Below are positions 708 to 9,879 of a stretch of 14,938 nt of DNA, piece by piece. The position numbers and the translations under genes were made by a program. The stretch is from a virus (Duplodnaviria > Heunggongvirae > Uroviricota > Caudoviricetes): IMG/VR virus record IMGVR_UViG_2690316148_000003; one strand, written 5' to 3'. Each line of letters opens with the position of its first letter. The stretch's first letter is position 1. The notes below the pieces were generated by a model, which ran no database searches, was not told the origin of the DNA, and saw nothing but the letters and a program-made list of their open reading frames with translations.

Positions 708-3614
708 ATGAGTCCATCAGAACTTAGCGACCTGCTTTGGGCGCAGGTTGACAGGGTGGCTCCGCACCTGTTGCCAAACGGCAAGAAAGAGGGGCATGAG
801 TGGGTTGCCGGTAACGTCAACGGTGACAAGGGAAACAGCCTTAAGGTCAACCTTAGCGGTAAGAAAAAATGGGCTGATTTCGCTGAGGGAGACGGCGGTG
901 ACATGCTTGATTTGTGGATGGCATGTCGTGGAATTAACCTGCATCAGGCTATGCAGGAAGCGAAAGCATTTCTCGGTATCAAGGATGACGATCACCATTT
1001 CGATGCCAGACGTGAGAAGAAATTCTCCAGACCTGATCGCAAGAAAATCGCCCACTACGTTACCAGAACAGAATCCCATCTTGAGTACCTGCAATCGCGT
1101 GGCATATCGCCAGAAGTCGTAAAGCGCTACGAGGTTGTCAGCGGCAAGGTGTGGAATGGAGAACGAGAACTGGATGCTCTGGTGCTTCCGTACAAACGCG
1201 ATGGTGAGTTGTTGCAGGTCAAGCGAATCAGCACTGAGCGCCCGGACGGGAAGAAAGTCATTATGGCAGAAGGTGATTGCGAACCTTGCCTGTTCGGATG
1301 GCAGGCTCTGGACGCTGGCGTGAGGGCGGTTGTGCTTTGCGAAGGCGAAATTGATTGTATGAGCTATGCGCAATACGGCATCTCGGCGTTATCCGTGCCG
1401 TTTGGTGGCGGGAAAGGCGCTAAGCAACAGTGGATTGAGTTTGAGTATCACAACCTCGACAGGTTTGAGGAAATATTCATCTCGATGGACGTTGATGATG
1501 TTGGTCGTGAAGCCGCAAGGGAAATCGCAAGCCGACTCGGTGAACATCGTTGCCGTCTTGTTACTCTGCCGTACAAAGACATCAACGAATGCCTGATGAA
1601 CGGTGTTACCGAGGATGAAATCTGGCAGTACATCGGCACGGCATCCTACTTCGATCCTGAAGAACTCTACAGCGCGCGCGAGTTTTACCAGGACACTATC
1701 AACGCTTTCTACGGCAAGCAGCAGTATCTGTTTAATCCACCGTGGGAATCTCTGGCAGATAAATTCCAGTTCCGTGAGGCAGAGTTGACGCTGGTCAATG
1801 GTGTGAACGGTCACGGAAAGGCATGCCCACTGAATGAGCCTATTCTTTTAGCTGATGGGACATGGACTACTCACGGGAATGTAAAAATTGGCGATCAGGT
1901 GGCGTCAGTAGACGGCAATCCGTCAACTGTCACTGGGATATTCCCGCAGGGTGTTAGAGATGTTTACCGAGTCACATTTGAAGATGGTCGTTATGTTGAT
2001 TGCGCAGGCGATCACCTATGGGAGGTCACTAGTCGTGGATTCACGAAAGGCGAGAAACGCCGCGTGATAGATACCTTCGGGTTGAAGCGGTTGAGTGAAA
2101 CGAAGAGGCACAAAAATGGCGTTAGGATTCCTGAAATAACTGGTGACTTTGGCGACCACTCAGAGCCATTAGCATGGGTTATCGGCTCCCTTCTCGGGGA
2201 TGGTAGTCTTAGCAATGGGAGCGTGAAGTTTTCAAACGTCGAGCCATACATGATCGAGCGTATGAAGGCTGAACTGCCTGATTACAACTTCTCTGGAGAT
2301 GGTAAGGACTGGCTGATATCAACGGCGCGTGGTCAGGTAAATCCACTCATGGAGACCCTGCGAGGTTATGGACTAATGGGGTGCACAGCAAAAAACAAAT
2401 TCATCCCTCGTGTGTTTTTTTCCGCAAATAAATCAACGCGTATAGGCATGCTGTGTGGTCTGCTTGAAACGGATGGGTATGTCGAGAAGGATGGAACGCT
2501 TGTTTTTTCCTCAGCAAGTGAAAAACTGCGCAATGGGGTTGTTCAACTGGTTAACTCACTCGGCGGGTCATGCCGGACGCGAGTTAAAACTGGCGTGACA
2601 TACACATACAAGGACGATAAGCGGCATGGGATGGATTCATACGAGGCAAGAATCAGACTGACAAGAGAAATCAGGGAGGCCATCCGTTCACCACGACTCA
2701 ATGGCAGATTAACTGCGCATCGATTCGAGGGCTGTGGGGTATTCGTCAGGAATGTTGAAAAAATCGGCAATGCAGAATGCTTGTGTATTATGGTCGATCA
2801 CCCTCGCCACCTGTATGTAACCAGGGGATATGTGGCGACGCATAACACCGAGGTTGTCGGGCATATGGCACTTGAGGCAATGCGTCAGGGTGTGAAGACG
2901 TGCATCGCGTCACTTGAGCTGAAGCCTGGTATTCTCCTTAAGCGACTTACCCGTCAGGCAACGTGCTGCAAGATGCCGCCAGTGCTGGAAATTGACTCTG
3001 CATTTAAATTTTATGACGAAAGACTTTGGGTGTTTGGCCTGACCGGAACGGCGAAAGCCGACAGGCTGATCGAAATATTCGACTACGCTCGCCGCCGATA
3101 CGGCATCCAGTTATTCATTATCGACAGCCTGATGAAATGCGGCATAGGTGACGATGACTATAACGGGCAGAAAGCGTTTGTTGACTCGATTTGTGACTTC
3201 AAAAACAAAACAAACTCCCACGTCATTCTCGTTACTCACTCCAGAAAAGGAGACAGCGAAGAAAAACCAACCGGGAAAATGGACGTGAAAGGCTCTGGAG
3301 CGATAACAGACCTGACAGACAACCTTTTCATCATCTGGCGTAACAAGGCTCGCGAGAGAGCGTTACAGAGAGTTCAGAGTGGTGAAAAGATGTCAGAGAA
3401 GGACGAACAGCTACTGGCGTCTCCTGCATCTGTTTTGATGCTTGAAAAACAACGTAACGGCGAAGGCTGGGAAGGTGGTGTTCCGTTGTTCCTTGACGAG
3501 CAATCGCACCAGTTCCTGCAACTTGAATCAGGATCGCCATATAGCTACATCGCCAATATGCCGAAATCGGAATATGACGAGGCGTGGCGACAGGAAAACG
3601 TGACGGAGTATTAA
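708..3614 (+). CDS. Bifunctional DNA primase / SF4 (DnaB-like, T7 gp4-type) replicative helicase, interrupted by an intein
   Basis: 968-aa ORF. N-terminal region has Toprim-like acidic motifs (LCEGEIDCMSYA, ISMDVDDVGREA). C-terminal half resembles the T7 gp4 helicase domain: Walker A GVNGHGK...T, then IIDSLMKCG and VTHSRKG-type motifs. In-frame stop at 702-704 fixes the start at 708. Confidence 0.9.
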   Translation: MSPSELSDLLWAQVDRVAPHLLPNGKKEGHEWVAGNVNGDKGNSLKVNLSGKKKWADFAEGDGGDMLDLWMACRGINLHQAMQEAKAFLGIKDDDHHFDARREKKFSRPDRKKIAHYVTRTESHLEYLQSRGISPEVVKRYEVVSGKVWNGERELDALVLPYKRDGELLQVKRISTERPDGKKVIMAEGDCEPCLFGWQALDAGVRAVVLCEGEIDCMSYAQYGISALSVPFGGGKGAKQQWIEFEYHNLDRFEEIFISMDVDDVGREAAREIASRLGEHRCRLVTLPYKDINECLMNGVTEDEIWQYIGTASYFDPEELYSAREFYQDTINAFYGKQQYLFNPPWESLADKFQFREAELTLVNGVNGHGKACPLNEPILLADGTWTTHGNVKIGDQVASVDGNPSTVTGIFPQGVRDVYRVTFEDGRYVDCAGDHLWEVTSRGFTKGEKRRVIDTFGLKRLSETKRHKNGVRIPEITGDFGDHSEPLAWVIGSLLGDGSLSNGSVKFSNVEPYMIERMKAELPDYNFSGDGKDWLISTARGQVNPLMETLRGYGLMGCTAKNKFIPRVFFSANKSTRIGMLCGLLETDGYVEKDGTLVFSSASEKLRNGVVQLVNSLGGSCRTRVKTGVTYTYKDDKRHGMDSYEARIRLTREIREAIRSPRLNGRLTAHRFEGCGVFVRNVEKIGNAECLCIMVDHPRHLYVTRGYVATHNTEVVGHMALEAMRQGVKTCIASLELKPGILLKRLTRQATCCKMPPVLEIDSAFKFYDERLWVFGLTGTAKADRLIEIFDYARRRYGIQLFIIDSLMKCGIGDDDYNGQKAFVDSICDFKNKTNSHVILVTHSRKGDSEEKPTGKMDVKGSGAITDLTDNLFIIWRNKARERALQRVQSGEKMSEKDEQLLASPASVLMLEKQRNGEGWEGGVPLFLDEQSHQFLQLESGSPYSYIANMPKSEYDEAWRQENVTEY
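1821..2846 (+). mobile_element. Intein (Hint domain plus LAGLIDADG homing-endonuclease domain) inserted in the helicase Walker A motif
   Basis: Insert lies between GVNGHGK and TEVVGHMALEAM. It begins ACPLNEPILLADG (Ala codon 1821-1823, Cys codon 1824-1826) and ends YVATHN (Asn codon 2844-2846), followed by Thr at +1. Two LAGLIDADG-type motifs: LAWVIGSLLGDGSL (about 2169-2210) and IGMLCGLLETDGYV (about 2442-2483). Block-B-like GRYVDCAGDHLW and block-F-like ECLCIMVDHPRHLY. N-terminal boundary uncertain by one codon (1821 or 1824). Confidence 0.7.
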
Positions 3615-4324: not shown

Positions 4325-4621
4325 ATGAGCAAAGTATCACGAGGAATGAAAATATCGCTTATTTTCATCCTTAATCCGCATCGTATCTTTTTGGCTTCAG
4401 CAGTATGGCTGTCATATTTTGTTTATTGGTTAGCAGATAAATTGGATGATTTTGCGAAATGGCTTGAGAATTTTGCGAATGCGAGGTTTGAGTCATGGCC
4501 GCTTATCGGAGAGAAGATGTCTGACGAATTAAACCGGTATTACGCGGATAAGCGCAAGGAGAAGAGCAGGAGGGCAAGTGAAGCAATTATTCCTGCTTCG
4601 CAACGAAGCAATCAGAAATAA
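4325..4621 (+). CDS. Hypothetical protein with hydrophobic N-terminal segment (about 98 aa)
   Basis: AAGGAG at 4314-4319, 5 nt upstream of ATG 4325 (track ORF starts at GTG 4319). 3' end overlaps the ninB start by about 44 nt. Confidence 0.5.
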   Translation: MSKVSRGMKISLIFILNPHRIFLASAVWLSYFVYWLADKLDDFAKWLENFANARFESWPLIGEKMSDELNRYYADKRKEKSRRASEAIIPASQRSNQK

Positions 4622-5024
4622 CGCCATAGACGCCATTCTCTCACTACCCATCGACGACAAGTCACCCCACGAAGTCCACGTTAGAGAACCCAAACGCAGC
4701 AAAGCGCAGAATGACCGTATGTGGCCGATGCTGAACGATGTTTCGCGTCAGGTGCTATGGCATGGTCAACGGCTGGCGCCGGAAGACTGGAAAGACCTGT
4801 TCACTGCCCTGTGGCTTAAGACCAAAAAACTGGAGCAACGAAGTGCGCCTGGTATCGGCGGTGGCGTTGTCATGCTTGGCGTGCGTACCAGCAAAATGCG
4901 AAAGGCCAGCATGACTGAGCTTATCGAAATCATGTTCTGGTTCGGCTCAGAGCGCAACGTGCGGTGGAGTGATAACTCCCGGCGAGAGTATGAATGGTCA
5001 CAACGAACAGGGAGGGCGGCATGA
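4578..5024 (+). CDS. ninB: NinB (Orf-family recombination protein)
   Basis: 148-aa product resembles phage lambda NinB as recalled ([32 protein letters not shown]-terminal GRAA). GTG start at 4578. Confidence 0.85.
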
Positions 5025-5238: not shown

Positions 5239-5547
5239 TTAAACGAAGCGGATCTGGAGTTTTTTTCCAGTAGCGCGGGCGAATTTTTTTAGGGTGGCAA
5301 ATGATGGGCCGCTGATACCTGATGCGAGATTACTTTCCATTCTGGTGATCGCGGTCGCTTTTGTTCCCATTCGCTCGGCAACTTCAGCCTGAGTTAAGCC
5401 AGCTTCTTTGCGTGCTGCCAGCATTTCATCAAGCAGTGCGAATTCGTCAGCGATAGCGTCGTATTCTGCTTTAAAAGCCGGGTCTTCCATCCATTTGGCT
5501 GCCATTTCGTCGTGTGTCATGGTGGGGAGAGTGCGTTTACCAGTCAT
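5239..5547 (-). CDS. HTH (XRE-type) antitoxin / addiction-module antidote protein, HigA-like
   Basis: 102-aa product has a C-terminal HTH (GLTQAEVAERMGTKATAITRMES). Strong SD GAAGGAGG upstream on the minus strand. Overlaps the upstream toxin ORF by 11 nt. Confidence 0.8.
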   Translation of the reverse strand: MTGKRTLPTMTHDEMAAKWMEDPAFKAEYDAIADEFALLDEMLAARKEAGLTQAEVAERMGTKATAITRMESNLASGISGPSFATLKKFARATGKKLQIRFV

Positions 5548-5866
5548 GCTTAACCTCCTTCATTCTGGTTTCAGCTTTCTTGCGTTCGGCTGGCGGTGTT
5601 TTCTGCGTTTTCTTTACAAAACTATGCAGCATGATGATGCGTTTCCCTGTCAGAGTGCAGTAAAAAACACGCGCGATCCCATCGTTGCCTTTAATTCTGA
5701 GTTCGAAAAGTCCGTCACCAAAGGCGCTGGTGTGAGGTTCTCCGAGATTGCTGCCATATATCTTCATACGTTCAACGAGATGTTGGTATCGGGCACGCAT
5801 ACTCAATGGAAGCCGATCGACTTCCAGCCTTACATCTTCACTGTAGTATTCGATAGTGTAGTTCAT
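5537..5866 (-). CDS. RelE/ParE-superfamily toxin (Gp49-like / HigB-like addiction-module killer protein)
   Basis: About 110 aa from the internal Met (MNYTIEYYSEDVRLEVDRLP...RVFYCTLTGKRIIMLHSFVKKTQKTPPAERKKAE). Toxin-first gene order, as in HigB/HigA modules. Start uncertain: ATG at 5866 or 5878; the track's longer N-terminal extension is unlikely. Confidence 0.75.
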   Translation of the reverse strand: MNYTIEYYSEDVRLEVDRLPLSMRARYQHLVERMKIYGSNLGEPHTSAFGDGLFELRIKGNDGIARVFYCTLTGKRIIMLHSFVKKTQKTPPAERKKAETRMKEVKHDW

Positions 5867-5892: not shown

Positions 5893-6001
5893 ATGCATTC
5901 AAGGCCTGTAGTTGACGACAACACATATCCGGGGCTATATTCCTCACGCGCCAGCAAAATCTGGCGTCGGGATTGGAACCCCGGATATCGAAACGGTGCA
6001 T

Positions 6002-6021
6002 ACCGCGCTGGCGGTTTTTTT
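6002..6021 (+). terminator. Candidate rho-independent terminator (plus orientation)
   Basis: ACCGC-GCTG-GCGGT hairpin followed by seven T (6015-6021). Short stem, so moderate confidence. Confidence 0.4.
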
Positions 6022-6184
6022 ATGCGCTAAGCACAGTCACATTCGCGATTTATGGCGGGCTGTGTGGGGGCACCGAAAGGTGCGCCGGATGTTTCGACCG
6101 GTAGTTCCAACCCTGCACAGTTCGCCACCCGATGATTGGAACCTGAAGGTGGTGAGGTAAAAATTATCGAAACGCGAGGTCGTT

Positions 6185-6871
6185 ATGACTGTTCAAGTTG
6201 CTGTCAAAAACCTTTCCCCTGTCACTTATAACCAGATTCCTGTAATCACAACTGAGTTACTCGCCCGCCTTTACGGAACAGAAGCAATCCGTATACAGCA
6301 GAATCACCATGAAAATAAATCTCGATTTATTGAGGGAAAACACTTCTTTAAAGCTGTTGGTGATGAGCTCAAAAATTTGCGACTAGTTTTAAACGAGTCG
6401 CAAAATGAGGTGAAAATTTCTCCAAAAACCCGCTCCCTCATCCTCTGGACAGAACGCGGCGCAGCTCGTCACGCGAAGATGCTCGAAACCGATCAGGCAT
6501 GGGACGTGTTCGAAAAACTGGAAGACTGCTATTTCAGCCAGACTTCGAAAAGCGCAGGTCATCACGAGAAGAAAACCAGCGAGCTTTCTGCAAAAGATGC
6601 AAACAGTCTGGTATGGTTGTGGGATTATGCCAACCGCTCACAGGCATTATTCCGCGAACTGTATCCGGCGCTAAGACAAATTCAGTCTAACTATTCCGGC
6701 AGATGCCACGACTACGGTCATGAGTTCTCGTATGTTATCGGAATGGCGAGAGACGTTTTAATCAATCACACACGAGATGTTGATATTAATGAGCCAGACG
6801 GACCAACGAATCTTTCTGCATGGGTAAGACTTAAGAACAAAGAATTACCTCCTTCACTACATCACTACTGA
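6185..6871 (+). CDS. ORF6N-domain (antirepressor-type N-terminal domain) protein with an unassigned C-terminal half
   Basis: GAGGT RBS 4 nt before ATG 6185. N-terminal region ([16 protein letters not shown]...[22 protein letters not shown]...[15 protein letters not shown]) fits the ORF6N pattern as recalled. C-terminal ~110 aa not recognised. Confidence 0.7.
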
Positions 6872-6889
6872 CAGATTGCCAACGCAACG

Positions 6890-6914
6890 ACCCAGCTTCG
6901 GCTGGGTTTTTTAT
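6890..6914 (+). terminator. Rho-independent terminator
   Basis: ACCCAGC-TTCG-GCTGGGT hairpin followed by TTTTTTATT, immediately after the 6185..6871 stop. Confidence 0.7.
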
Positions 6915-6945
6915 TGCTGAATTTTCAATATGAGAGGACATGACA

Positions 6946-7200
6946 ATGAACGAGCTGATAAATAGCAACGCCATCAAAATGACCAGCATTGAAATCGCTG
7001 AGTTGGTGGGTAAGCGTCATGACAATGTGAAACGTACCATCGAAACGCTGGTTAAAAGTGGAGTTATCCGGCTTCCTCAAATTGAGGTTTCCGAAAGAAT
7101 CAATAACTTAGGGTTCAATGTTCAGTACGAGCATTACGTCTTCGAAGGCGAACAAGGTAAGCGCGACAGCATTATTGTCGTTGAAGGAGGTGTTGCATGA
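6946..7200 (+). CDS. Rha-family phage regulatory protein (short, Rha domain only)
   Basis: MTSIEIAELVGKRHDNVKRTIETL matches the Rha N-terminal motif as recalled. GAGAGGA RBS favours ATG 6946 over the track's 6940. Stop overlaps the next start (ATGA). Confidence 0.75.
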   Translation: MNELINSNAIKMTSIEIAELVGKRHDNVKRTIETLVKSGVIRLPQIEVSERINNLGFNVQYEHYVFEGEQGKRDSIIVVEGGVA

Positions 7201-7967
7201 ATGCCGTAATTATTGCCAACGCAGAAATCGTGCCGATTGAGTTTAATGGCGAGCGTGTTGTTACGTATCAAATGATTGCTGATATTCACGGGGTTCCAGT
7301 AGCCACTATTCAAAATGGCTATGCGCGAAACTCTGAGTATTTCATAGACAGGGAAGATACATATTTTATTGATTTTCATGAAAATACCTTTAGAAGGGGT
7401 TTTGAAATTCCTCCTCGTGGCATGCGAGTTTTCACTGAATCAGGCTATTTGATGCTGGTTAAAACCCTGCGCGACGAGACGGCGTGGAGAGTGCAACGTG
7501 AGCTTGTTCGCAATTATTTTCGTGGCCAAAAAGAAGATAAGTCAGCCTTGCCCGACTTCACAAACCCTGCTGAAGCCGCCAGAGCGTGGGCAAACGAATA
7601 TGAGCAGAAAGTGAAGCTGGAGCAACAACTCGCGATTGCCGCACCTAAAGTTGAGTTTGCCGATCGCGTTGGCGAGGCCAGCGGAATTTTGATTGGAAAC
7701 TTTGCAAAGGTTGTTGGTATTGGCCCAAACAAACTGTTTGCGTGGATGCGTGATCACAAAATCCTTATTGCTTCAGGTTCCCGGCGCAATGTGCCAATGC
7801 AGGAATATATGGATCGCGGCTATTTCACAGTGAAAGAAACAGCGGTCAACACAAATCACGGAATACAGATATCGTTCACCACAAAAATCACCGGGCGTGG
7901 TCAACAGTGGCTGACCAGAAAGCTGCTCGATAACGGAATGCTGAAAGTAACAGGGGAGGCTGCATGA
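7197..7967 (+). CDS. Phage antirepressor: N-terminal ORF6N/AntA-like domain plus C-terminal KilA-C (ANT) domain
   Basis: 256 aa. N-terminal ARNSEYFIDREDTYFI-type motif; C-terminal LFAWMRDHKILIASGSRRNVPMQEYMDRGYF resembles KilA-C. Translationally coupled at both ends. Confidence 0.8.
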   Translation: MNAVIIANAEIVPIEFNGERVVTYQMIADIHGVPVATIQNGYARNSEYFIDREDTYFIDFHENTFRRGFEIPPRGMRVFTESGYLMLVKTLRDETAWRVQRELVRNYFRGQKEDKSALPDFTNPAEAARAWANEYEQKVKLEQQLAIAAPKVEFADRVGEASGILIGNFAKVVGIGPNKLFAWMRDHKILIASGSRRNVPMQEYMDRGYFTVKETAVNTNHGIQISFTTKITGRGQQWLTRKLLDNGMLKVTGEAA

Positions 7968-8326: not shown

Positions 8327-8511
8327 ACGCCACAATTCAAACGATACCAGAGCTTCTTATCCAGACACGAGGCAATCAGACCGAAGTGGCGAGGATGCTT
8401 TCCTGCGCAAGAGGAACAGTGCTCAAGTACAACCGAGACAGCAAAGGCGAGCGTCACGTAATAGTTAACGGCGTCCTGATGGTCAAACAGGGCAAGAGGG
8501 GAAGACGATGA
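8323..8511 (+). CDS. ninH: NinH-like protein
   Basis: 62 aa. GNQTEVARMLSCARGTVLKY...VIVNGVLMV resembles lambda NinH. Located immediately upstream of Q, as in lambda. Confidence 0.65.
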   Translation: MNATIQTIPELLIQTRGNQTEVARMLSCARGTVLKYNRDSKGERHVIVNGVLMVKQGKRGRR

Positions 8512-9131
8512 GACTCGAAAGCGTAGCTAAATTTCATTCGCCAAAAAGCCCGATGATGAGCGACTCACCACGGGCTACGGCTTCTGACTCTCTTTCCGGT
8601 ACTGATGTGATGGCTGCTATGGGGATGGCGCAATCACAAGCCGGATTCGGAATGGCTGCATTTTGCGGTAAGCATGAACTCAGCCAGAACGACAAACAAA
8701 AGGCTATCAACTATCTGATGCAATTTGCACACAAGGTATCGGGGAAATACCGTGGTGTGGCAAAGCTCGAAGGAAATACTAAGGCAAAGGTACTGCAAGT
8801 GCTCGCAACATTCGCTTATGCGGATTATTGCCGTAGTGCCGCGACGCCGGGCGCAAGATGCAGAGATTGCCACGGAACAGGTCTGGCAGTTGATATAGCC
8901 AAAACAGAGCAGTGGGGGAGAGTTGTCGAGAAAGAGTGCGGAAGATGCAAAGGTGTCGGCTATTCAAGGATGCCAGCAAGTGCAGCATATCGCGCTGTAA
9001 CGATGCTAATCCCAAACCTCACCCAACCCACATGGTCACGCACTGTTAAGCCGCTGTATGACGCTCTGGTGGTGCAATGCCACAAAGAAGAGTCAATCGC
9101 AGACAACATTTTGAATGCGGTCACACGTTAG
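8508..9131 (+). CDS. Q: Late-gene antiterminator Q (lambda-type)
   Basis: 207-aa product appears essentially identical to phage lambda Q as recalled (MRLESVAKFHSPKSPMMSDSPRATASDSLSG...CRDCHGTG...CGRCKGVGYSRMP...NAVTR). Confidence 0.9.
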   Translation: MRLESVAKFHSPKSPMMSDSPRATASDSLSGTDVMAAMGMAQSQAGFGMAAFCGKHELSQNDKQKAINYLMQFAHKVSGKYRGVAKLEGNTKAKVLQVLATFAYADYCRSAATPGARCRDCHGTGLAVDIAKTEQWGRVVEKECGRCKGVGYSRMPASAAYRAVTMLIPNLTQPTWSRTVKPLYDALVVQCHKEESIADNILNAVTR

Positions 9132-9391: not shown

Positions 9392-9466
9392 GGGTCAGTC
9401 GTATAAAGGTCATTACGGAAGGCTGTTAACCTTCTTATCGTTGTTCGAGTCCACGCTGTCCCGCCA
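9392..9466 (+). tRNA. tRNA-like gene, anticodon GUU (Asn), with mismatches in acceptor, D and T stems; possibly degenerate
   Basis: Hand-folded cloverleaf: acceptor GGGTCAG/CTGTCCC (one T-T mismatch), perfect anticodon stem GAAGG/CCTTC with loop CTGTTAA, T-loop TTCGAGT, discriminator G, encoded CCA. Confidence 0.45.
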
Positions 9467-9471
9467 AATAT

Positions 9472-9547
9472 GCTGGTTTAGCTCTAATGGTAGAGCAGTC
9501 GCCTTGTAAGCGAATGGGTAGCGGTTCAAGTCCGTTAACCAGCACCA
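9472..9547 (+). tRNA. tRNA, anticodon UGU (Thr)
   Basis: Hand-folded cloverleaf: perfect 7-bp acceptor stem GCTGGTT/AACCAGC, D-stem GCTC/GAGC, anticodon loop CTTGTAA, T-arm AGCGG-TTCAAGT-CCGTT, discriminator A, encoded CCA. 76 nt. Confidence 0.75.
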
Positions 9548-9663
9548 TAACTGAGCCGTAGCCACTGGCTATCCTGAATTCATCAGTGACAGTTACGCTG
9601 CGGCCTTCTTTTCCCCTTCCCAATATAAGAACTACGCCATCCGTTATTTGCGGAGGTGAGGCT

Positions 9664-9879
9664 ATGAAATCCATGGACAAAATTTCAACGGGCATTGCCT
9701 ACGGCACCTCCGCCGGCAGTGCCGGCTACTGGTTTTTGCAGTGGTTGGATCAGGTCAGTCCGTCACAGTGGGCTGCGATTGGTGTGCTGGGAAGTCTGCT
9801 TCTGGGGCTTCTGACTTATCTGACAAATCTGTATTTCAAAATAAGAGAAGATAAGCGTAAGGCTGCGAGAGGTGAATAA
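9664..9879 (+). CDS. S: Class II holin (phage 21 S-type pinholin) with dual start
   Basis: [30 protein letters not shown]...[15 protein letters not shown] closely matches phage 21 S holin as recalled. Two in-frame starts (Met1 and Met4). RBS GGAGGTGAGG upstream; the track ORF begins further upstream at 9586. Confidence 0.85.

Follow-up and report, generated by a model that had tools for sequence, protein, structure and literature searches.

Known antirepressor systems

Close homologues of the gene described here have already been studied experimentally as P22 Ant, Φ24B Ant and Gifsy-1 AnrP, and what is reported below therefore carries little weight as a discovery. In P22 the 300 aa Ant protein, which is composed of the domains P22_AR_N and P22_AR_C, is described as binding to and inactivating the repressor protein, and it also inactivates the heterologous λ repressor. 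The P22 ant gene sits in the late operon and is controlled by Mnt, Arc and the sar RNA (PMC2629481). In Φ24B the ant gene is found in the nin region with a roi-type gene behind it; in lysogens from which ant has been deleted (Δant), pR' activity following norfloxacin treatment is only 27-56% of that in the wild type, a defect that is complemented by pBAD-ant, and superinfection is unchanged in the same mutant.

Antirepressors can also be controlled by antisense RNA. In the immI region of P1 and P7 (c4 RNA - icd - ant1/ant2) a C4-family antisense RNA lies upstream of the antirepressor gene that it controls and on the same transcript; its targets are duplicated, with the a1/b1 pair upstream and the a2/b2 pair downstream near the ribosome binding site, a few loop bases set the specificity, and the c4 RNA of P1 is processed by RNase P. 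Pairing of the c4 RNA around the ribosome binding site represses Ant synthesis (PMC8546580, PMC12197685). In the Gifsy-1 prophage of Salmonella the order is isrK-orf45(STnc1160)-anrP-isrJ; transcription of anrP is driven by PisrK, the isrK-anrP mRNA that arises by read-through goes untranslated, translation of anrP rises 139-fold when short IsrK is provided in trans, and expression of AnrP induces Gifsy-1 and raises antQ mRNA (PMC4825925). The 45 codons of orf45 start at an ATG inside C4 and its stop codon overlaps the ATG of anrP, translation of anrP being coupled to that of orf45.

The window, by which we mean the whole stretch of 14,938 nucleotides that was analysed, is a segment of a lambdoid prophage. 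The gene of interest occupies 6185-6871 on the + strand, to which all coordinates below refer unless stated otherwise, and lies between ninB and Q in the nin region, with NinB (4578-5024) on one side and the Rha/ANT genes (6940-7967), RusA, NinH and Q (8508-9131) on the other. It belongs to a known antirepressor family, is already annotated and comes under RNA control of a known type. We consider it highly probable that this is ant from a lambdoid prophage, encoding an antirepressor of the Φ24B/933W type that acts against a CI/C2-type repressor and is gated by an IsrK/C4 RNA cassette. The host of the ant-bearing prophage is most likely Shigella or E. coli.

The ant gene and its two domains

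The ORF begins with an ATG at 6185, ends with a stop codon at 6869-6871 and encodes a product of 228 aa, with a Shine-Dalgarno sequence, GAGG, at 6176-6179, 5 nt ahead of the ATG. The ORF and its own ribosome binding site had both been proposed in an earlier, sequence-only reading of this DNA, as had an antirepressor-type N-terminal domain, and all three are borne out, a Pfam scan placing ORF6N (PF10543) at aa 12-99 (6218-6481) with E=2.6e-20. This is not a chance ORF, because the identical protein is present on 55 public contigs; at NCBI it is entered as "phage antirepressor Ant [Shigella flexneri]".

The same reading held the C-terminal ~110 aa to be without any recognisable relative and proposed profile searches and structure prediction as the check. 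In this it was mistaken, as P22_AR_C (PF10548, "P22AR C-terminal domain") matches aa 128-200 (6566-6784) over the complete profile (1-73/73) with 98.6 bits against a cut-off of 22.4 (E=2.2e-28), and aa 125-228 share 88% of their residues with the C-terminal end of P22 Ant. The finding is in substance the one that the sequence-only reading had named as counting against itself, namely a known KilA-C/ANT domain in a conventional antirepressor; P22_AR_C is a Pfam family distinct from KilA-C/ANT, and its homologues behave as antirepressors. The whole of Ant (1-228) aligns to the full profile (1-213/213) of PHROG 377, "anti-repressor Ant", with E=4e-79, and the C-terminal half by itself still matches this profile with E=5.7e-34. 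Scans of Ant and of its C-terminal half against NCBIfam gave no match, the family being covered by Pfam and PHROGs instead.

Hundreds of full-length relatives of Ant carry both domains, and both Pfam domains are present in every one of the best 120 database relatives. Genes of this kind are named "phage antirepressor Ant" or "P22AR C-terminal domain-containing protein" by PGAP/RefSeq; indeed Pfam, PHROGs, Rfam and RefSeq already supply a name for the gene, for each of the two domains and for the RNA elements that control it. The module is also common, as a query covering 5900-6950 was matched in 1611 of 5426 complete E. coli genomes (~30%), in up to 7 places per genome, and coverage was at least 80% in 486 complete E. 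coli genomes. The outcome of the check is thus mainly corrective: the domain thought to be unassigned is P22_AR_C, and the transcription unit is longer than had been supposed and governed by an IsrK/C4 RNA switch.

Mosaic origin of ant

The closest relative over the full length is the ant gene of Φ24B, and with it those of 933W, VT2-Sakai and CP-1639 (PHROG 377), with which the protein shares ORF6N and P22_AR_C at 70% identity and without large gaps. The gene order is the same in Φ24B, including the position in the nin region ahead of a roi-type gene, and the a1b1-isrK-C4 leader is shared. There are however differences: the first ~75 codons at the locus represent a different allele from that of the Φ24B-type ant, the C4 specificity is likely to differ, a RelE/ParE-HTH pair precedes ant here and the roi-type gene behind it has undergone rearrangement.

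The two ends of the protein have separate affinities, AnrP having only the N-terminal domain in common with Ant and P22 Ant only the C-terminal one. The N-terminal module (aa 1-123; 6185-6553), which contains the ORF6N match, is 62% identical to aa 1-120 of Gifsy-1 AnrP (STM2616), whereas the C-terminus of AnrP is unrelated to Ant and is without a Pfam domain. The C-terminal module (aa 125-228; 6557-6868), which contains the P22_AR_C match and the core of the structural model discussed below, has 91 of 104 residues identical to residues 197-300 of P22 Ant (88%; BLASTP, E=5e-71), and a tblastn search of phage genomes gives 87.5% identity to P22 ant and 91% to ε34 ant. Similarity to P22 Ant in BLASTP is limited to aa 125-228, an ORF6N domain standing in place of P22_AR_N, and the two proteins are thus not full-length orthologues. 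The genes also differ in their setting, that of P22 being in the late operon and the one here in the nin region, and scans with Pfam and Rfam found neither an arc or mnt gene nor a match to sar at the locus, the neighbours being RelE/ParE, HTH_3, Rha and ORF6N-ANT genes.

At the DNA level homology to P22 ant is ~90%, starts abruptly near 6565 (codon ~127) and, in the alignment, extends beyond the ant stop codon and through an identical terminator hairpin and U-run. This intrinsic terminator, GACCCAGC-TTCG-GCTGGGTT followed by a T-run, was located by a terminator scan at 6889-6914 and has 8 stem pairs and a TTCG loop; the sequence-only reading had placed it, correctly within a nucleotide, at 6890-6914. 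As the P22 homology crosses the identical hairpin, the terminator at 6889-6914 is that of P22 ant and came along with the 3' half of the gene. In addition to this junction at codon ~125 there is another near codon 76, since matches of at least 84% identity to the DNA of the phage database begin only at nt 227 of ant.

Judged from these alignments, Ant combines an AnrP-like ORF6N N-terminal domain with a P22 Ant C-terminal domain, a mosaic produced by domain shuffling within the "Bro network". The swapping of domains in this network has been described before (PMC10111431), and the locus makes a textbook case of modular recombination, in which a Gifsy-like leader and N-terminal domain are joined to the 3' half of P22 ant and its terminator. 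The view that antirepressor N-terminal domains are fused to variable C-terminal domains, which had been put forward from the sequence alone, holds in the form of such shuffling, as P22_AR_C is found in combination with Bro-N, AntA, KilA-N, ORF6C, P22_AR_N and ORF6N. In the Pasteurellaceae P22_AR_C is joined to Bro-N, AntA, KilA-N and ORF6C and is also present by itself, as a protein of ~100-140 aa; identity with the domain of enterobacteria is only ~23%, but the K..W-L-W..R..F core is kept.

The RNA leader of ant

The RNA leader (5912-6184) has no place in the description given by the sequence-only reading. It falls within a gap of 318 nt between the toxin gene and ant in which three Rfam elements score above their gathering thresholds (c4-a1b1, isrK and C4). 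A consensus scan finds a σ70-like promoter site, TTGACG-18 nt-TATATT, at 5912-5941 (10/12 match) which is homologous to the isrK promoter of Gifsy-1, both the -35 and the -10 hexamer being conserved in the alignment of the leaders, and the isrK model begins 7 nt past this -10. The c4-a1b1 element (RF03163), which represents the upstream target hairpins for C4 RNA, covers 5935-5987 (50.1 bits against a gathering threshold of 46.7, full model). The IsrK-type sRNA (RF01394) covers 5948-6021 (72.1 bits against 50, full model) and ends in an intrinsic terminator, detected by the terminator scan, with its stem at 5994-6015 and a U-run to 6021. A C4-type antisense RNA (RF01695) follows at 6048-6132 (75.2 bits against 45, full model 1-87/87), and folds at -46 kcal/mol into the Rfam topology. 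The earlier claim of an independent transcription unit is therefore half right, as the gene does have its own ribosome binding site and terminator, but the unit begins ~270 nt upstream of the gene, at 5912-5941, and takes in two regulatory RNAs.

The two recognition elements of the C4 RNA are GTTTCGA (6091-6097), in a hairpin loop, and GTTCCAA (6104-6110), which is single-stranded. Exact 7-nt complements of both are found twice in the leader. Within IsrK these are TTGGAAC at 5973 and TCGAAAC at 5988, and in the leader of ant they are TTGGAAC at 6136 and TCGAAAC at 6167. Upstream and downstream targets lie inside exact 10-nt direct repeats, the upstream copies being GATTGGAACC at 5971-5980 and TATCGAAACG at 5986-5995, and the downstream pair, assigned from complementarity, the repeats and covariation and spanning 6134-6174, being GATTGGAACC at 6134-6143 and TATCGAAACG at 6165-6174. 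The last of these ends 2 nt before the Shine-Dalgarno sequence of ant. Two such doubly matched sites arose by chance with only 5 of 20000 shuffled C4 sequences.

Two further sequences in the leader deserve comment. Between the two downstream targets lies GGTGGTGA (6149-6156, +), which is conserved in 10 of 10 loci and complements the 3' arm of the outer stem of C4; this suggests a possible alternative cis structure that may compete with the folding or processing of C4. A 27-codon upstream ORF (6052-6135, +) starts at an ATG inside C4 and has its stop codon at 6133-6135, 52 nt before the ATG of ant. The equivalent ORF ranges from 10 to 64 codons among the phage loci, and as its length varies in this way the conserved feature is the RNA pairing and not the upstream ORF. 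Translational coupling of ant after the manner of Gifsy-1 orf45 was considered and rejected, given the distance of 52 nt and the lack of conservation of the upstream ORF.

Control by the SOS response was also considered, as a LexA box-like sequence with 1 mismatch, CTGTAGTTGACGACAA (5906-5921, +), overlaps the -35, and was likewise rejected: 6 such sites were found in the window where 5.0 are expected by chance, and the box is not conserved in Gifsy-1. In the Rfam scan there was no match to the sar RNA at the locus, nor was isrJ found downstream of ant.

Comparison with the leaders of other phages

The leader aligns with that of Gifsy-1 over its whole length with 80% column identity, isrK, a1b1 and C4 being present in both, and in both prophages the antirepressor locus adjoins Q. 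The two loci differ in the stop codon of the upstream ORF, which overlaps the start codon of the antirepressor gene in Gifsy-1 but not here, and in isrJ, which follows anrP but is absent behind ant; they differ also in the specificity of C4 and its targets (ACGCCAA/CGGTGAT in Gifsy-1 and GTTCCAA/GTTTCGA here). The arrangement of the antisense RNA and of its duplicated target pairs is that of immI of P1 and P7, however C4 and ant are not separated by an icd-like gene, the upstream ORF found in this position being neither conserved nor coupled.

The a1b1-isrK-C4 trio is found not only upstream of ant in Φ24B and anrP in Gifsy-1 but also upstream of eight other phage antirepressor genes. Comparison of ten phage loci reveals 6 different 'b' specificities (GTTCCAA, ACGCCAA, GTGCAAA, GTAGCAA, AGACCAA and GTTCGAA) and about 8 different 'a' specificities (GTTTCGA, CGGTGAT, TGGTTGAT, TCCTTTTTC, GTAGTCA, CCTTTGTAG, CCTTTTAG and CATGATGA), and the loop changes together with both of its targets. 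In all ten loci the downstream 'a' target abuts or overlaps the Shine-Dalgarno sequence or the start codon. Complementarity and covariation, like the domain identities, the homologies and the RNA family matches, are direct observations on the sequences compared; the covariation provides strong comparative evidence for a functional RNA-RNA pairing between C4 and its targets, which is itself predicted from complementarity, and on this comparison shows that the control circuit is under selection. The variation in C4 specificity across loci mirrors the loop specificity that underlies the heteroimmunity of P1 and P7 (PMC12197685).

It is tempting to see in the triad of IsrK, C4 and targets a programmable RNA address code, by which each prophage would keep its antirepressor shut off with its own C4 and release it with its own IsrK, whilst the shuffled protein modules (AnrP-like N-terminal and P22-like C-terminal domains) would choose the repressors that are hit. 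Many E. coli genomes do contain several copies of the module. We regard this idea as speculative and rather doubtful, but if it were true the code would form a combinatorial network through which co-resident prophages either cross-talk or are insulated from one another.

Proposed mechanism and alternatives

Under the favoured reading, most transcripts that start from 5912-5941 would stop at the IsrK terminator to give a short IsrK-type RNA, and those that read through would carry both the C4 RNA and the ant mRNA. Following the logic of c4 in P1 and P7, the two recognition elements of C4 would pair with the two targets in the leader of ant and occlude the region of the ribosome binding site, leaving ant untranslated. 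The short IsrK, with its identical decoy copies of both targets, would then titrate C4 and release the translation of ant, as IsrK does for anrP in Gifsy-1. Once made, Ant would most likely bind a CI/C2-type prophage repressor non-covalently and inactivate it, and in this way trigger the lytic switch or make it faster. That Ant binds a repressor, that C4 represses translation and that IsrK serves as a decoy are inferred for this locus from its homologues. The mechanism of Gifsy-1 can be transferred only in part, as the overlapping stop codon on which coupling depends is absent here. The cognate repressor gene of the prophage lies outside the window.

Other readings of the protein have to be set against this one. 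As its N-terminal domain belongs to the Bro/KilA-N/ORF6N/Rha network, and neighbouring genes drawn from the same network are annotated as DNA-binding protein Roi, Ant might be a DNA-binding regulator of transcription that acts through its ORF6N (Bro/KilA-N-like) domain directly on a phage promoter rather than by binding a repressor protein; Fogg et al. do indeed leave open whether CI is acted on by the Ant of Φ24B. This would seem unlikely given that the C-terminal domain is 88% identical to that of P22 Ant, for which binding and inactivation of the repressor have been described. The breadth of P22 Ant, which inactivates the repressor of λ as well, might instead point to an accessory effector, as the sequence-only reading had suggested, that is aimed not at the switch of its own prophage but at other elements, either as a trans-acting inducer of co-resident prophages or satellites or as a factor that interferes with superinfecting phages. 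Antirepressor crosstalk between Salmonella prophages has been documented (PMC3121763), genes of the Bro network and C4/isrK RNAs are found in PICI satellites too (PMC10111431), and C4 specificities differ from phage to phage. Nevertheless it was induction of the phage itself that was impaired in the Φ24B Δant mutant and superinfection that was left unaffected, and the site in the nin region is the canonical one for the ant of Stx phages. Defence-system models (PADLOC) moreover gave only weak matches, to the candidate PDC-S05 (E=3e-6), which are confined to the ORF6N region, with none for the C-terminal domain, and overall we hold such an effector to be very improbable.

That ant should be a non-functional relic of recombination in a decaying prophage is harder still to credit. 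Its mosaic structure, with junctions near codon 76 and codon 125, and the truncated remnant of Rha which is the next gene downstream could both be taken in this sense, but the ORF is intact, identical on its 55 contigs and accompanied by hundreds of full-length two-domain relatives. At least 80% of the module is retained in 486 E. coli genomes, the regulatory RNAs are intact, and loop and targets covary. An antirepressor that acts on a phage repressor under the control of IsrK and C4 thus continues to be the reading that we prefer.

The P22_AR_C domain

A sequence search for relatives of Ant in the PDB found none (best E=0.87, spurious). A model of full-length Ant made with AF2 from 17 close homologues had a mean pLDDT of 39 and was unusable. 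A second run of AF2 was confined to the C-terminal domain and used a more diverse alignment of 32 rows that included the homologues from Pasteurellaceae; it gave a mean pLDDT of 69, with a confident core only at aa 136-195 (pLDDT 80-96) which consists of two long antiparallel helices forming a hairpin. A Foldseek search of the PDB with this model returned generic helical matches only (best E=1.5) and no fold was assigned. P22_AR_C is therefore a recognised sequence family without a solved structure or a known fold relative, a gap that concerns the whole family and does not make the locus novel. P22_AR_C, with this helical hairpin, may itself be the part of Ant that binds the repressor.

Genomic surroundings

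The genes of the window follow one another in the order primase/helicase with an intein-like insert, NinB, a RelE/ParE-HTH pair on the minus strand, the ant cassette, the Rha remnant and an ORF6N-KilAC gene, and continue with RusA, NinH, Q, tRNA-Asn, tRNA-Thr, a P21-type holin, lysozyme, Rz, an HNH endonuclease, TerS, TerL and portal. The toxin-antitoxin moron that ant had been said to adjoin is there as described: it consists by Pfam of a RelE/ParE (Gp49-type) toxin and an HTH_3 antitoxin (5239-5866, - strand) and is divergent from the ant cassette. The 154-aa ORF listed there runs to 6001 and, in crossing IsrK and the isrK promoter, is drawn too long; its homologue in RefSeq has 109 aa. In related Stx phages ninE or a methyltransferase occupies the position of the RelE/ParE-HTH pair.

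Downstream of ant, the sequence-only reading had seen a split Rha/antirepressor pair, which is roughly right. The ORF at 6940-7200 (86 aa) is a remnant of a Rha-family (Roi-type) gene in which only the N-terminal 79 aa are left; an intact Rha/KilAC (Roi-type) protein of 240 aa, found in E. coli Z1323CEC0001 (L004:4021-4743), matches them over its aa 1-79 with 94% identity. The Phage_pRha match of the remnant in Pfam is limited to aa 14-40, and the equivalent fragment in E. coli VL40 is called a Rha pseudogene by PGAP. The ORF at 7197-7967 encodes a second antirepressor-type protein of 256 aa (Pfam KilAC/ANT, E=3e-33; ORF6N, E=2e-10), and overlaps the first by ATGA at 7197-7200. It retains, at 93% identity, the C-terminal 131 aa of the intact Roi-type protein, but these stand behind a different ORF6N N-terminal domain. 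The pair at 6940-7967 is a rearranged Roi-type gene with its middle replaced, and the ORF at 7197-7967 is a recombinant of this gene.

Finally, two other features of the window may be mentioned. Stx phages carry tRNAs and stx in the slot between Q and the holin, and in the window this slot, between Q and the P21-type holin (9586-9879), holds tRNA-Asn(GTT) and tRNA-Thr(TGT) (9392-9547, +) and no toxin gene. The primase/helicase (708-3614, +; 968 aa), which has Toprim_2 at aa 209-296 and AAA_25 at aa 787-849, contains an intein-like insertion with a Hom_end-associated Hint domain at aa 379-424 and LAGLIDADG_3 at aa 579-634. As the P protein of Φ24B has the same length, this insertion is probably a known feature of the replication genes of Stx phages.
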